Source: Promethearchaeota archaeon (lineage in GTDB: Archaea > Asgardarchaeota > Lokiarchaeia > Sigyniarchaeales > SOKP01). Taken from it: a stretch of 64,000 bases of DNA. The translations under genes and the position numbers were made by a program. Below are positions 1,034-25,983 of this stretch, piece after piece; positions within the stretch are counted from its first letter, which is position 1, and the number at the start of each line of letters is the position of its first letter. The notes below the pieces were generated by a model that did no database searches, was not told the origin of the DNA, and saw nothing but the letters and a program-made list of their open reading frames with translations. The stretch is from positions 9,632 through 73,631 of the forward strand of contig JBHLPW010000005.1 in the NCBI GenBank assembly GCA_048939015.1, read 5' to 3'.

Positions 1034-1143
1034 ATACCTTACAATAGCCTATTGACCTTAATAATCAGTCATTAACTTATATCAACACACTAATGAAGTT
1101 TTGAGTAAAAATTAAATAAAAAAAAATTAAATATAAAAATAGT

Positions 1144-1824
1144 GGAGGAATAAAATTTAGGCGGTGCTTAATCGCGAAGCCATCTGTCTAAATTTATTCT
1201 TCCCAATTCTATATTTGTTTTAATTATTTTCTTAGTTTCTCGACACTCAATTATTACAATTTTATGTCGGGAAGAGTCCTGAAATGATATTTTAATATTA
1301 AACATTTCATTAGAAACGTATCTATTTGTTTAAAAAAGCTTTATTATTAATCCTTTAATCCGCCTTAAATATTGTGTAAACATTTATCATTTTTTTATCA
1401 TATTATTAAAAAATTTTATATGAAATTTCATCCTTTTTTATGTATTCCATACACCGCCTATTCAAAGCATATGAAGGAAGGTAAGCTTACATGATTTTCT
1501 TCATATGTATTCAAGGGATCTATATTAAAAGGATAATTACACATATGTCCAATATCCACACATAAGTTCAATAAAAATATGATATTTTTCAATGAATAAA
1601 GTATCATATATCAATTCTTTCATCATATTTCATTAATCTATGAATTTCTTATAATCAATATTAGATTTTCTTATCCACAAACATCCTGTCAGAAAAATAT
1701 AGTGAACTAGATGAAGATTATATATAGAAACTTCTTTATGATCTTATGATTTGTTGGTTGAAGAAACCCTTGAAGATTTCCAACCCCAATTCTTATTTCT
1801 CGCTTCTAATATATAAAGTAAGAA
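1144..1824 (+). ncRNA. Putative structured non-coding RNA (or ssDNA origin) region
   Basis: At least 6 hairpins (1144-1203, 1236-1274, 1280-1309, 1467-1508, 1577-1609, 1790-1824). Their non-Watson-Crick pairs read as G-U on the + strand. No ORF >=60 aa. Confidence 0.45.
1168..1305 (-). CDS. Possible 45-aa small protein (MFNIKISFQDSSRHKIVIIECRETKKIIKTNIELGRINLDRWLRD)
   Basis: Manually translated ORF followed by T-rich tracts; antisense to the hairpin region. Confidence 0.25.
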   Translation of the reverse strand: MFNIKISFQDSSRHKIVIIECRETKKIIKTNIELGRINLDRWLRD

Positions 1825-1839
1825 TAGAAAATGTGATCT

Positions 1840-2847
1840 CTAATTACTTTCCTTAGTGAGAACTGTTATTCTATTAGGTTTACACACTATTTTATCTCCA
1901 TCTTCAAATGGATTTATCTCTTTAATAAGAATTTTACTACTCCAAGTCGGATTTAAGAAAACAAAGAAATATGTAGATTTCTTCTTAATAGCTTTTTCAA
2001 ATTCTGGTTTAAAATCAACAGATTGATAAAATGTTAATGTTTTCTCTCTTGAAAATCGTAATTTTAAAGAATATATCTTACCATTCCATATTATATCTGG
2101 AGTGTGTTCATTATGAGCGACAATTTCATGTAAGAATTCTTTTGGAGCACCTAAATGTAAAGCATACCAATCTTCAAACATTTCACCTAATTTATATTTA
2201 TTATGTTTATGTTCTCTCATAAGTTTAGCATTTTTGTCAATAAAGGAAAAAGGAATATCGATATTTTCGTCATCAATTTGTTGATATGTTTTGCCTTTTA
2301 TTAAACTTTCAGCGATTCTTGAAAGCCTGTTATCTTTTATTGTCTTTCTCACATACTCAGGAAAAGTCAATTGCTTTGATTTATCATATTCATAATCTTT
2401 TTGGAGATCTTCTATAAAATACCCTAACAAACCTAATTGCCGATAAATATGATAACCTTGATTTAAAGCTTTATTTAAATGGTCCATAAATTTCCTTAGA
2501 AATTGATAAGAGATATCATTAGGGGATTCTATGGTTCTTTTTTTTAAATATTTCTTTATCTCATTTTTATCAATAAATTTATTGTAATAATCAATTATCT
2601 CTTTTTGTAATTCTATTTCATCTTTATTAAAAACATCGGCTATTAAAAAATCTGTATGACCTCGTTCATACCAATAATCATTTTTTACTTCTAACTTTGT
2701 ATGCTTATCCAATCCTTTATTGATTTCTTTATCTCTTTCCATACCATCTAAGACTCGTTCTTCAATTTCTTCTTCTGGAAATCCAATAATATTTCTTAAA
2801 AACACCTCATACCATTCCTTTGGTTTAAGATTTGTTGGTTTTGACAT
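1840..2847 (-). CDS. Hypothetical protein with C-terminal PD-(D/E)xK-like nuclease domain
   Basis: 'GEMFEDWY...PDIIWNGKIYSLK' fits the E..PD..(D/E/S)xK restriction-endonuclease fold pattern; helical N-terminus. Confidence 0.6.
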   Translation of the reverse strand: MSKPTNLKPKEWYEVFLRNIIGFPEEEIEERVLDGMERDKEINKGLDKHTKLEVKNDYWYERGHTDFLIADVFNKDEIELQKEIIDYYNKFIDKNEIKKYLKKRTIESPNDISYQFLRKFMDHLNKALNQGYHIYRQLGLLGYFIEDLQKDYEYDKSKQLTFPEYVRKTIKDNRLSRIAESLIKGKTYQQIDDENIDIPFSFIDKNAKLMREHKHNKYKLGEMFEDWYALHLGAPKEFLHEIVAHNEHTPDIIWNGKIYSLKLRFSREKTLTFYQSVDFKPEFEKAIKKKSTYFFVFLNPTWSSKILIKEINPFEDGDKIVCKPNRITVLTKESN

Positions 2848-4259: not shown

Positions 4260-6188
4260 GTGCTTGAGATGAGATTGGAATTAGAAAAAATTCAAATTGA
4301 AAACTTCTACAGTTATAAAAATGTTATTTATGAAAATTTTAAGAATTATAATGTAATCATTGGGAAGAATAAATCAGGTAAATCTAATCTATTTAAACTT
4401 TTTAATCTCCTTAAGAAGAATGTTAATGCTAATGATATTAAAATAAACGATATATTTGACGAAGACATTGAATTGGACAATAAAATTACCCTAGTTTTTA
4501 GTATTAATCAAAAATTAAGAGTTAAAATTTTTTCCATTCTCTATGATGGAAACTATTTAAGCAAAATGGTTAAATATTATATAAGAAATCCTGATAAACA
4601 TAAGGATTATCAACCATATCCTGAGTGGAAGATTAAAAATGAGGTTATGGATTGGTTGTTGGGCAAAGGTCTTTTTAATAATTTATTAATAGATATTGAA
4701 TATGATAAAAAACAAAATTTTCTCAGTATAAGAAAAGTTTCAGTTTATCATAGTCTTTTTAAAACTTATCAGACTCTCTTTGAACTTCAATATAATGAGA
4801 ATAGAGAGGAAGCGTTTATTCTTAATTTAGAGGAGTTTGTTAGTACTTTCATAAGTATTGAAGGTCTTTTCAAATTGAATGAATTGAAAAAATTACCTTA
4901 TAATACAACATTTAACTTGAGAAGAACTATATACTTAGGTAGGGATAATGACCTTTTAAAACAACATATACCGATTTTAAAACCAATACTTAACTCACTT
5001 TTAGATAACTTTTTCAATGTTATTCATGTGATTCCTGCTAAGAGATTATTTGATTCTGATTCTGATAGAGATAAAATAAGTGATACAACTTTGGATTTAA
5101 ATGGTAAGAATTTAGTAAAATTTATTCATAAAAAGGCAGCTAAACAACAGTGGGAATGGTTAAATGATTGGAACTTGGATTTAAAACATTTTTTGGATGA
5201 TGTTGAGGAATTAAAGCAAGATGTAAAGGAGAATAATAGATCCACATTGATTTTAAAAGAATATGGTTTAAATATGGATATTCCCTTAGAAAGTATGGGA
5301 TCTGGTATTTTAAACATAGCACATTTCTTGGCATACATAAAAACTTTAGAAAACCCAAGTATTATCTGTATTGAAGAGCCTGAAATCCATCTTCATCCCG
5401 GTTTGGAAAGAGAACTAAGAAATGAATTCATTAGACAATCAGAAAAGCATCAGATCTTTATTACCACACATTCAAGAGAGTTCTTAGACGATAATGAAGA
5501 AAAATGTTCAATTTACTTGATTAGTAAAAGAGAAGATTGTTCAAATGTTAAAAAAATATCCAATAAAGATTATGAGGAGATTTACAGAGATTTAGAATTA
5601 ACCCTATCTCAATATGAAGAATCTAATAAAATACTTACGGATGACGAATTTTGGAAGAATTTCATTACTAAAGCAATCGAGAAAGAAAAATATGAAACCG
5701 AAATTTGGGATTTTAAAGAATTTCTTGAGATATGGAAAACAAATAACCCTCAAGTAAAGAGAAAAAAGAAAATTGACTTTTGTGGTCATATTGCATCGTT
5801 TGCAAATAATAAGGGTGGAATTCTTATACTTGGAATCTCTGATAAAATTCCTCGAGAACTTAAAGGTTTAAATGACATTGAGACAAAAATGAACCATTTG
5901 AAAGAATTAATAATTAAATTCATTGAGTATCCTAAAGATTTTACATTTATCAAATCAATTTCATTGAATGACCTTAATGGAAATGAAATAGATTGTATAT
6001 TAATTGTTATTGCTCAAACCAAAGAAGGAGTAGCAGTTAGAGATGATAATAACAATTATTCTTATTTTTTCAGGATATCTTCTGGAAAGCAGAAAAGATC
6101 ACCACAAGAAATTAAGGAATTGAAAAAAGAAACGGTCCGAGATAATTATAAGTTTCTTAATCATCTAAGAGAAGAATTCCAAATCTAA
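4260..6188 (+). CDS. ABC-type (AAA_15/AAA_21, OLD-like) ATPase fused to C-terminal Schlafen/AlbA_2 domain
   Basis: Walker A GKNKSGKS, signature ESMGSG, Walker B IEEPEIHLHP, H-loop TTHS; C-terminal 'ETEIWDFKE' and 'IASFANNKGGILILGISD'. Confidence 0.85.
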   Translation: MLEMRLELEKIQIENFYSYKNVIYENFKNYNVIIGKNKSGKSNLFKLFNLLKKNVNANDIKINDIFDEDIELDNKITLVFSINQKLRVKIFSILYDGNYLSKMVKYYIRNPDKHKDYQPYPEWKIKNEVMDWLLGKGLFNNLLIDIEYDKKQNFLSIRKVSVYHSLFKTYQTLFELQYNENREEAFILNLEEFVSTFISIEGLFKLNELKKLPYNTTFNLRRTIYLGRDNDLLKQHIPILKPILNSLLDNFFNVIHVIPAKRLFDSDSDRDKISDTTLDLNGKNLVKFIHKKAAKQQWEWLNDWNLDLKHFLDDVEELKQDVKENNRSTLILKEYGLNMDIPLESMGSGILNIAHFLAYIKTLENPSIICIEEPEIHLHPGLERELRNEFIRQSEKHQIFITTHSREFLDDNEEKCSIYLISKREDCSNVKKISNKDYEEIYRDLELTLSQYEESNKILTDDEFWKNFITKAIEKEKYETEIWDFKEFLEIWKTNNPQVKRKKKIDFCGHIASFANNKGGILILGISDKIPRELKGLNDIETKMNHLKELIIKFIEYPKDFTFIKSISLNDLNGNEIDCILIVIAQTKEGVAVRDDNNNYSYFFRISSGKQKRSPQEIKELKKETVRDNYKFLNHLREEFQI

Positions 6189-6782: not shown

Positions 6783-8057
6783 TTATTCTATTGGATAATA
6801 GTCCGTTTCAGATATTTCAATATTTTTTTCTGGAATTTCTTTAATCATCATTCGTTTAGCAAGTGAAAATAATTGTGGTGATATCTCTACTAATTTTTCT
6901 ATTCTTTGTCTTAATTCTTTTACTTCATCTTTCAGTTCTTTGTTTTCTTTTTTAATAGCTTCTATTTCATATGGTTGAGTTATTAATTTGACAGCAATTT
7001 CCTTTTCATCTCCTTCCTTAATAATATTATTACATTTCCAGCAAAAAAAATTTTCTTGAGCATTTTCAGTTCTACAGATGGGACAGATTTTAGGTTTTTT
7101 TGGCTCTTGTTTTGGAACTTCCACAGCCTCATCAGTTAAGATATTAATCACATCATCATCATTTAAGTGAAAATAGACTTTTGCCATTGTAGAACCAGCA
7201 GACCAACCAGCAAATTGACGAATTTGAGCCTCATTTAATTTCGTTCGTGCTAATTCGGTTAATCTGGAATGTCTAAATAGATGTGGATAAAGCTTTCTTC
7301 CATTCCACTGTTCAGGAAATTTGTTTGTTAATTTTTTAATGATAAATCTTAAATAATTATTTACAATCACATTTGAAGAAAAGTTAAAAAGTAAATCTTT
7401 TGACTGAAAATCGTTGATTTCAAGATATTCTTTTATATATGGAATAGATTCGATTAAAGGTACATCTCTTCGTCTTGTTTTTGATTTTACTATTTTTAAA
7501 GTAGCGTATCCACCATTAAAACGAATGTCTTTTCTTGTAATATTAAGAACCTCGTCTATTCTTAAAGCTCCTTCATACATTACCATGATTAATGTTCTAT
7601 ATTGAAGATTACATACTTTTAAGATTTGGTCCAAATCTTCTCTTGAAATTAAGTCAATTTTACTTAGTTGCTTTGTTTTTCTATTTATTCTTTTAGGAAG
7701 TAATTTTTTTAAGTCTGTTCTATCAGAAAATTTGAAATATTGCTTAAGTCGATTCGCATGCATTTTTTGGGTACCACTCTTAAGACCATTCCACCATTTG
7801 CAGTTAAGAAAGTCTTTAAGATCCTGTTCAGTAAATAGATTTATATTGTTATTTTCTAATGTAAAATCTTTTTCTTTATTTCGACAGCTTTCATTTCTCT
7901 GATTATCAGTTTCAAATAATTTGCCAATAGTTACTAAATGATTTAAAATTGTACCATCTGATTTACCTTTTAATTGGTTATAATAATATTCTTCAATATT
8001 ATTGTCCTCAGATTTTAACCGTTCCAAATACTTATTAATTAAGTTATTTAAATCCAT
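6783..8057 (-). CDS. Tyrosine recombinase/integrase with C-terminal Zn-ribbon and coiled coil (SNJ2-like architecture)
   Basis: Catalytic R (GALRIDE), K (SKT), HLFRH, AGW, Y (KVYFH); CPIC...CWKC ribbon. Confidence 0.92.
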   Translation of the reverse strand: MDLNNLINKYLERLKSEDNNIEEYYYNQLKGKSDGTILNHLVTIGKLFETDNQRNESCRNKEKDFTLENNNINLFTEQDLKDFLNCKWWNGLKSGTQKMHANRLKQYFKFSDRTDLKKLLPKRINRKTKQLSKIDLISREDLDQILKVCNLQYRTLIMVMYEGALRIDEVLNITRKDIRFNGGYATLKIVKSKTRRRDVPLIESIPYIKEYLEINDFQSKDLLFNFSSNVIVNNYLRFIIKKLTNKFPEQWNGRKLYPHLFRHSRLTELARTKLNEAQIRQFAGWSAGSTMAKVYFHLNDDDVINILTDEAVEVPKQEPKKPKICPICRTENAQENFFCWKCNNIIKEGDEKEIAVKLITQPYEIEAIKKENKELKDEVKELRQRIEKLVEISPQLFSLAKRMMIKEIPEKNIEISETDYYPIE

Positions 8058-25881: not shown

Positions 25882-25983
25882 CGCAGATGGAGGGACTCGA
25901 ACCCCCGAGCGCTCACGCGCACCGGCTCGCTTGAATATAGACGATTCTCAAGGCCGGCGTCTTACCAGCTAGGCTACATCTGC
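25882..25983 (-). tRNA. tRNA-Ser(TGA) with 19-nt canonical 37/38 intron
   Basis: GCAGATG/CATCTGC acceptor stem, CT-TGA-G, central helix CTTG/CAAG, long variable arm, TTCGAGT loop. Confidence 0.92.

Follow-up and report, generated by a model that had tools for sequence, protein, structure and literature searches.

What does an 806-nt gap without a long reading frame do inside the defence island of an Asgard archaeon? The gap occupies positions 1034-1839 of a 64,000-nt stretch of a Promethearchaeota archaeon, referred to here as the window (assembly GCA_048939015.1, contig JBHLPW010000005.1; C43:9632-73631 in our numbering), which belongs to a metagenome-assembled genome (MAG) of 4.86 Mb. A sequence-only reading had marked positions 1144-1824, downstream of a gene for a HEPN-like DUF4145 protein, as a candidate large non-coding RNA with six helices and a suggested pseudoknot. 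We found that helix 1 (1144-1203) is the core of a strongly conserved, interrupted hairpin element of about 96 nt, which we call R1 and which recurs in related genomes. Our preferred and still tentative reading of R1 is a conserved 3'-end hairpin with a terminator-like or insulating role.

The R1 family and its copy in the window

Aligned matches of R1 contain, in order, an A-run, ATATAGAA, GGAGGAA, GTTTAGG, an apical GGTGTGGTCATTCGAGAAGCCATTTA, TCTAAAC, TTCCTCC and TTCTATAT. The outer stem ATATAGAA/TTCTATAT is 94% paired, and in the family consensus CCTCC is followed by TTTTT. Standard pairs fill 91% of the stem cells, and sequence conservation extends to both arms. From 8 copies we derived a covariance model (22 base pairs), which detected 4-5 copies in the genome that carries the window, about 120 matches in the same genus (38 of 54 genomes), and further matches in a second genus (18 of 35 genomes) and a third (1 of 7 genomes); none were found when the remaining 20 genera of the order were searched with the model. 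Overall, the model yields at least ~190 matches, among which some of the weakest, few in number, are opposite-strand echoes of the same palindrome; the family is spread as 1-8 copies per genome over two to three genera of one Promethearchaeota (Asgard) family. A search for the core motif among 185,579 species genomes returned 36 stretches, all in Asgard MAGs labelled Promethearchaeota, Promethearchaeia or Hodarchaeota. The same motif was not found in IMG/VR viral contigs, and a phage search with the whole gap as query yielded no similar DNA. Three loci with high-scoring R1 copies had no match in Rfam even at E <= 1, and the gap 1034-1839 had none in Rfam 15 at gathering scores, so that the covariance-model check suggested with the sequence-only reading assigned the gap to no Rfam family. 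Kink-turn, T-loop, bulge-helix-bulge, selenocysteine insertion sequence (SECIS), C/D or H/ACA, and CRISPR repeat or leader identities were judged by eye, with no formal test, and no defining motif was seen.

The copy in the window (1125-1220, + strand) scores 84.3 bits with the covariance model (E = 1e-16) and belongs to a diverged subtype with GGAGGAA/TTCTTCC and TTTAGGCGG/CTGTCTAAA arms, an apical GCTT/AAGC stem and the loop GGCGGTGCTTAATCGCGAAGCC. It is 97% identical to its counterpart in G064, the one other species genome with which the defence island is syntenic; the flanks are 72-80% identical. A metagenome scan with the window R1 loop added eight contigs to G064, and this set defined a conserved module of which R1 forms part (~1075-1465). 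The mean pairwise difference was 0.087 within R1, compared with 0.27 for 1221-1330, 0.20 for 1331-1400 and 0.30 for 1401-1465. Upstream of R1, a conserved block (1075-1124, + strand; mean pairwise difference 0.14 among 6 homologs, versus 0.27-0.30 further right) holds a TATA-like ATATTAAATA followed by an A9 run, which on the − strand is a T9 run directly after the hairpin. The ATATTAAATA box ends about 26 nt ahead of GGAGG, and a similar box stands about 23 nt ahead of a tRNA gene at 25983. That tRNA gene (25882-25983, − strand, 102 nt) was found by Rfam with 44 bits and missed by ARAGORN; an intron is probable, such introns being usual in archaea.

R1 and helix 2 are the sole structurally conserved parts of the module among nine homologs, and both favour the + strand. 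The alignment fold of R1 reached −24.8 kcal/mol (z −6.2) on the + strand versus −13.2 kcal/mol (z −2.6) on the − strand, and the three G.U pairs of the window subtype on + were invariant in all nine. Helix 2 (TTCTCGAC ... GTCGGGAA, 1236-1274, + strand), whose 5' arm corresponds to a AGGGTTGAA box of canonical R1 copies, is conserved in the window-type module only. Its nine-sequence alignment fold gave z −7.5, and the pairwise comparison with G064 a structure conservation index of 0.73 (z −5.5). Pair 174/204 is C-G in five sequences, U-A in two and U.G in one, and on the + strand helix 2 shows five independent G.U changes and zero A.C changes among nine related sequences. The + strand G-U bias reported for the whole region therefore stands for helices 1 and 2 and fails for the remainder. 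Helix 3 (GAAATG/CATTTC, 1280-1309, + strand) is possible; it falls outside the RNAalifold consensus, and by eye two of its pairs change on both sides (A-T to C-G and A-T to T-A). Between ~1310 and 1465 no conserved structure was detected in the nine homologs. A mini hairpin, GATAA-ACA-TTATC, followed by a T6-T7 run (1378-1396, + strand) is near-invariant, with ATAAACA(A/T)TTATCATTTTTT kept in 9/9 homologs; together with its T-run it looks like a + strand termination signal. The right end of the module (1397-1465, + strand) is AT-rich and contains TTTTATAT and GTATTCCACACACC. Most other contexts cease to be homologous at ~1420-1523, with BLAST end points at 1420 (L150), 1455 (L145, L148 and L151), 1503 (L149) and 1523 (L152).

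The rest of the gap behaves differently. All six helices and the complement TTCAAGGG (1510-1517)/CCCTTGAA (1767-1774) were found as described, and the minimum-energy fold of the + strand includes helices 1, 4, 5 and 6. Positions 1144-1824 fold with z −3.6 on + and −1.6 on − (20 shuffles per strand). A sliding 100-nt scan singled out 1109-1233 alone (z −5.2 on +, about −1.0 to −1.4 on −), and once helix 1 was removed (1225-1839) z fell to −1.6 on both strands, with 3/60 shuffles folding equally well. In the proposed comparison with shuffled sequence, 1109-1233 alone was clearly positive. Enrichment of hairpins in 1225-1839 is modest: ungapped hairpins of at least 9 bp number 7 on + (2.7 +/- 1.7 expected; 7 reached in 5/200 shuffles) and 7 on − (3.8 expected; 7 reached in 23/200 shuffles). 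A DNA search of the kind suggested earlier, run against 60 relatives, matched only the first ~135 nt of the gap, and 1466-1839 could be aligned only with G064 and L146. G064 carries about 55 nt of deletions there and has lost helix 5, and L146 is 73.5% identical with mismatches spread evenly over the three phases. None of the structures proposed in this stretch is conserved. Homologs do not retain helix 4 (1467-1508), helix 5 (1577-1609) or helix 6 (1790-1824); each of them has a different 5' arm of helix 4, and the arm in the window looks like a local GAAGG duplication. The pseudoknot has two uncompensated mismatches in L146, and a perfect 8-nt complement with at least 4 G/C arises in 8.4% of shuffles. 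With a pairwise structure conservation index of 0-0.35 and z about 0, 1466-1839 is a spacer under weak constraint at most.

The gap is non-coding, as had been proposed. No tested segment of the module or of the spacer showed three-base periodicity: substitutions per phase were 0.29/0.31/0.21 in 1221-1330 (coding control 0.04/0.04/0.17) and 0.256/0.266/0.274 in 1466-1839 (adjacent-gene coding control 0.36/0.12/0.17). Alignment gaps relative to L146 were 4 and 1 nt long in the spacer versus 15 and 12 nt in the coding control, and small open reading frames (ORFs) in the gap differ in frame and length between homologs. A 45-aa minus-strand ORF (1168-1305) has a conserved Met and spans helix 3, helix 2 and part of the R1 loop, without a Shine-Dalgarno (SD) sequence or periodicity. 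It was rejected as a gene, its 68% identity in G064 being explained by nucleotide conservation through R1. We likewise rejected a 24-codon ORF (1491-1565), whose start codon and frame are lost in homologs, and a 60-77-codon open + frame present in several homologs, which lacks periodicity.

Genomic placement of R1

Placement was analysed for 64 R1 copies. In 49 of them a gene on the strand opposite to the model stops no more than about 80 nt, and typically 30-70 nt, from the model's 3' end. Read in the direction of this adjacent gene, R1 is a stem of roughly 22-30 bp with T7-10 directly after it; the corresponding A-run of the model strand is at least 7 long in 58/64 copies. The run on the other side of R1 is at least 5 long in just 14/64 and mostly 3-4. 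Four to five copies either follow a gene on the same strand, for instance 29 nt behind an IMPase-like gene, or are placed between two converging genes.

The commonest neighbour of R1 is a single family of proteins, ~210-330 aa long, that have a signal peptide and the motifs RPxxDW and WPxE and for which no Pfam match was found. Examples are L016:692-1465 (contig C32 of the same genome as the window), L008:636-1454 and L003:308-1072. Every gene of this family has an R1 behind it, and the genes often form tandem gene-plus-R1 units about 0.85-1.2 kb apart. Other neighbours include NosD/beta-helix proteins and unrelated genes. Across the 54 genomes of the genus, all 27 with the secreted family carry R1 and all 16 without R1 lack the family; eleven genomes have R1 without the family, usually as one copy. 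The association is strong, in genomes that are related and hence not independent, so that the counts are not a formal test.

R1 can also be followed at orthologous positions. The arrangement secreted gene - R1 - Ras-family GTPase is kept in six to seven species, and at this locus R1 shows stronger conservation than either the ends of the flanking coding sequences or the promoter region of the GTPase gene. At the IMPase-like locus R1 is present in 9/30 genomes, and four genomes carry half or decayed copies behind the gene: L119 (G072), L128 (G019), L120 (G006) and L137 (G005). These copies show that R1 can disappear piecemeal when the converging neighbour gene is lost, and the absence of R1 at this locus looks like decay and rearrangement rather than clean excision. 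Small-GTPase loci of genomes without R1 gave no usable orthologous empty sites, as there are many paralogs and no family gene upstream.

An additional box lies between the stop codon and R1 in 34/64 copies and consists of GGAGA, a few bases, a triplet and AGGGTTGAA; in 19 of the 34 this triplet reads ATG, GTG or TTG. In L022:1597-1650, for example, an SD-like GGAGA and a start-like triplet are followed by AGGGTTGAAATCTCTAAA, and window 1236-1262 holds a weak counterpart. The ORF opened in this way was rejected as a conserved peptide, since it has 3-48 codons with varying frames and ends and runs into the hairpin. A peptide read through R1 on the gene strand was rejected as well, several high-scoring copies stopping in-frame at codon 5. 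The box might serve translation-coupled control or might be merely a nucleotide motif.

The window-type module occurs in several flank contexts. A DUF4145 gene lies on its left in the window, G064, L149 and L147, that is, in 4/8 contexts with a known left flank. In a fifth, L146, a DUF2721-like membrane protein gene (L146:4501-5004) is accompanied by a remnant of the DUF4145 3' end, and L148/L151 and L150 have unrelated genes. On the right, converging minus-strand genes follow, including a Septu-like HNH nuclease and AAA_21 ATPase in L152 (L152:1206-2416). The gene slot that adjoins the module behaves like a hotspot of defence-gene exchange. In L149 (618-818) the stretch matching window 1503-2805, which comprises the spacer and most of a 335-aa gene, is missing and only the first codons remain. 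R1 adjoins DUF4145 in the window, G064 and three metagenome contigs only, and two distant DUF4145 homologs had no R1 nearby. Together with the persistence of the module where DUF4145 is replaced or absent (L146, L148, L150 and L151), this shows no consistent linkage, so that the co-occurrence expected of an RNA partner of DUF4145 is lacking; nearly all of the R1 family lies beside unrelated genes.

In the window itself, the DUF4145 gene (392-1033, + strand; PF13643, E = 1.9e-22; PADLOC PD-T7-4, E = 1.4e-15) precedes the gap on the same strand, as described earlier, and encodes a PD-T7-4-like defence protein. The gene converging on the gap from the right (1840-2847, − strand; 335 aa), the terminal gene of a minus-strand group, had no match in Pfam or PADLOC and has a coding-type substitution pattern relative to L146. 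Further along are an AriA/AAA_15 ATPase fused to a Schlafen AlbA_2 domain (4260-6188) and a tyrosine integrase (6783-8057), which adjoins housekeeping genes. Upstream of the window on C43, the island starts directly after a Nop5 gene and contains a TIR-AbiTii fusion and a DpnII/MboI-like nuclease (L013:2331-3308 and L013:4203-4988). The mobile-element setting inferred earlier is supported in the form of an integrase-bearing defence island.

Candidate functions of R1

The reading that we favour, with some reserve, is that R1 is a conserved terminator-like or insulator hairpin at 3' ends. R1 would act as RNA and, as a 3'-end module, would mark and insulate the ends of transcripts. A canonical copy, with its stem and T7-10 past a stop codon, has the geometry of an intrinsic terminator or of a 3'-end-protecting stem-loop, and the placement counts given above (49/64 and 58/64) bear out the immediate T-run and the position behind stop codons; a simple scan for G+C-rich terminators did not call R1. 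The window R1 lies between the DUF4145 gene and the converging minus-strand group, with T9 read on − and TTTGTTTT read on +. Because of the T-runs on both of its sides, we propose that it stops or stabilises transcripts arriving from both directions, and it would in this way separate two transcription units of the defence island. The presence of R1 in both orientations fits such a two-way element. Conservation of the loop and flank sequence implies a sequence-specific partner, which may be a protein or an RNA. The 3'-end reading explains the whole palindrome, the T-run, the position after the stop codon, the orientation bias and the sites between converging genes.

Several observations weigh against a 3'-end module. 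Two studies describe archaeal termination as needing only U-tracts, with the termination factor aCPSF1 (PMC7515710, PMC8716108); on that description, a terminator leaves a 96-nt stem and loop conservation across genera unexplained. Covariation is weak, with only 5 double changes, a number equalled in 36/500 shuffles, so that pairing is unproven beyond a conserved inverted repeat. The model (+) strand, which is antisense to the adjacent gene in most copies, folds better than its opposite in 34/39 copies, by 5 kcal/mol on average; the strand opposite the model, in the direction of the adjacent gene, folds at −14 to −28 kcal/mol. The window subtype has its three fixed G.U pairs on +. A TATA-like, TTTAAATA-type box ends 20-23 nt ahead of GGAGG, at promoter distance, in about a third of the copies (about 18-20/61, compared with 0-3 at any other offset). 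The window R1 has no minus-strand gene ending less than 619 nt away.

Nearly as likely, in our estimate, is that R1 is an independent small-RNA gene whose transcription uses the model strand (+ in the window). Transcription would start at or near GGAGG, with the TATA box just ahead of the A-run, and would yield a hairpin of ~60 nt (GGAGG...CCUCC) ending in a U-rich tail; the transcript from the window might extend via helix 2 to the T6-T7 run at 1390-1396, for a length of about 250 nt. Such an RNA could act as a cis-antisense on the converging mRNA 3' end or in trans via CCUCC or the loop. The strand preference in folding, the invariant G.U pairs with the stronger + strand alignment fold, and the one-sided G.U changes of helix 2 all suit an RNA made from this strand, as do the upstream boxes, ATATTAAATA in the window resembling the tRNA-gene box in its spacing. 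The conserved block 1075-1124 and the TTTTT after CCTCC, which would supply the U-rich tail, fit as well. What a small RNA leaves unexplained is the outer stem, whose 5' arm would lie upstream of the start site, along with the long, near-universal A-run and the placement behind stop codons. In the main family, moreover, with one fixed G.U set aside, scattered G.U cells (20) and A.C cells (26) are balanced, and we rejected their ratio as a strand indicator there. TATA-like words are also common at 25-30% G+C, and orthologous copies inflate the count of boxes.

We give a distinctly smaller chance to R1 being the recognition hairpin of a novel, sequence-specific Asgard system that tags the 3' ends of mRNAs mostly for secreted or surface proteins. 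The tag could serve localisation, stability or translation control through the 3' untranslated region, or could be a convergent cis-antisense small RNA. The short frame opened by GGAGA, a start codon and AGGGTTGAA and running into the stem could couple translation to hairpin formation, comparable to attenuation, and the window subtype would be an R1 copy recruited into a defence-island hotspot.

That R1 is instead a palindromic repeat acting at the DNA level appears unlikely. It would be a relic resembling a miniature inverted-repeat transposable element (MITE) or a repetitive extragenic palindromic (REP) sequence, or a recombination site for cassette-like exchange of neighbours. The arms are indeed conserved in sequence with little covariation, the copies are dispersed beside unrelated genes, and the patchy, partly truncated occurrence at the IMPase-like locus could be read in this way. 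The module is found in at least four flank contexts, and five contigs of one metagenome break at or near it. The tyrosine integrase lies 5.5 kb away, and about 8% of Asgard genomes are reported to contain integron attC arrays (PMC9668308). Against a DNA repeat are the low copy number, the stable orthologous positions across species and the strongly biased orientation relative to genes. No clean empty site or target duplication was seen, and losses resemble decay or truncation. The viral contigs lacked the core motif, the strand asymmetry in folding is not expected for duplex DNA, and the attC end motifs are absent, the GTT and AAC arms standing in reversed order.

It is also improbable that the gap is a decayed minus-strand gene that once ended about 45 nt from R1, which would make the window R1 an orphaned 3' module. 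Canonical copies do have a gene at exactly that place, loss of a gene at the IMPase-like locus has left orphaned and truncated R1 copies behind, the G+C skew of 1001-2000 has the negative sign of minus-strand coding regions, and the box next to R1 is recognisable in the window (TTGAGTGTCGAGAAAC vs TTGAGGGTTGAAATC). Yet tblastn and a family profile run against six-frame translations of 1201-1860 found nothing of the secreted family, tblastx of the gap against the whole genome gave only marginal AT-rich matches and no paralog, and the gap lacks three-base periodicity. The window R1 remains strongly constrained and is hence no dead relic.

Finally, a single structured stretch of ~700 nt, be it an RNA that serves the HEPN-like DUF4145 protein as antitoxin or other partner or an origin of single-strand replication, is very improbable: the whole-region z on +, the mild excess of short + strand hairpins and the DUF4145 gene ahead of the module in half of the contexts with a known left flank speak for it, whereas the signal fades once helix 1 is removed, conserved structure ends at ~1275-1310 in the nine homologs, helices 4 and 5 and the pseudoknot fail as described (helix 4 stemming from a change confined to the window), the module persists without DUF4145, and the locus shows no sign of an origin, no replication gene being seen nearby. 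Of the hairpin-dense stretch first flagged, only the initial ~150-330 nt are special, and they contain a diverged R1 copy.

Relation to known elements

Both the R1 family and the window-type module appear undescribed, with no match in Rfam and no description found in full-text literature searches. With intrinsic or bidirectional terminators and the archaeal U-tract (aCPSF1/FttA) terminators, R1 shares a stem followed by T7-10, a position 30-70 nt past stop codons and sites between converging or tandem genes; the window R1 in addition has a T-run on both sides. It differs from intrinsic terminators in its interrupted stem-loop of about 85-96 nt and in the conservation, over two to three genera, of its primary sequence, loops and a flanking box included. 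Archaeal terminators, as described in PMC7515710 and PMC8716108, are hairpin-independent. With only 1-8 copies per genome, R1 is not a general terminator of these organisms.

REP/BIME, ERIC and Correia elements and archaeal MITEs are dispersed intergenic palindromes. R1 appears closest in kind to dispersed palindromes of this sort that are terminator-like, and shares with these elements an imperfect, sequence-conserved, intergenic palindrome, often at gene 3' ends, with some orthologous copies lost or truncated. It differs in its very low copy number, stable orthologous positions, tie to one gene family and strand-asymmetric folding. As to the marks of a MITE or REP element, neither a target duplication nor a clean empty site was found, and no partner transposase was seen, no genome-wide search for one having been made.

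Integron attC sites are defined by RYYYAAC at the 5' end pairing with GTTRRRY at the 3' end, and their arrays lie beside intI and attI. R1 resembles attC in being an imperfect palindrome 3' of ORFs with single-strand folding asymmetry, in the tandem gene-plus-element units of some genomes and in the variable neighbours around the window-type module; attC has been reported in Asgard MAGs (PMC9668308). The outer arms of R1, by contrast, are ATATAGAA/TTCTATAT, and its only GTT/AAC arms (GTTTAGG...TCTAAAC) are internal and in reverse order. R1 is dispersed, without an adjacent IntI-type integrase or attI, and its neighbours are mostly paralogs of one family.

Like ToxI of type III toxin-antitoxin systems and AbiF-associated RNAs, the window R1 is structured, does not code for protein and neighbours a defence gene within a defence island. 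Unlike these RNAs, R1 has no tandem repeat array and is not specific to defence genes, the family being attached mostly to secreted-protein genes. Stem-loops with specific partners in 3' untranslated regions include the archaeal and eukaryotic SECIS and the histone mRNA stem-loop, and R1 is likewise a sequence-conserved hairpin in the 3' flank of a particular gene set. It differs from SECIS in that no Rfam SECIS match was found at E <= 1 and that the upstream genes stop with TAA and require no in-frame TGA, and from both in lacking a known binding protein.

The notion of a large non-coding RNA that partners a HEPN defence protein is best dropped. The window-type module is a marker of a site at which defence genes are swapped (DUF4145, DUF2721-like, Septu-like HNH plus ATPase) and may help to find such hotspots. 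In the archaeal group nearest to eukaryotes, R1 forms a family of conserved non-coding elements that is better preserved between genera than the neighbouring proteins and is tied to one uncharacterised secreted-protein family. Very little is known of transcript 3'-end formation and regulatory RNA in Asgard archaea, and the R1 covariance model with its about 190 mapped sites provides a concrete target for transcript mapping.

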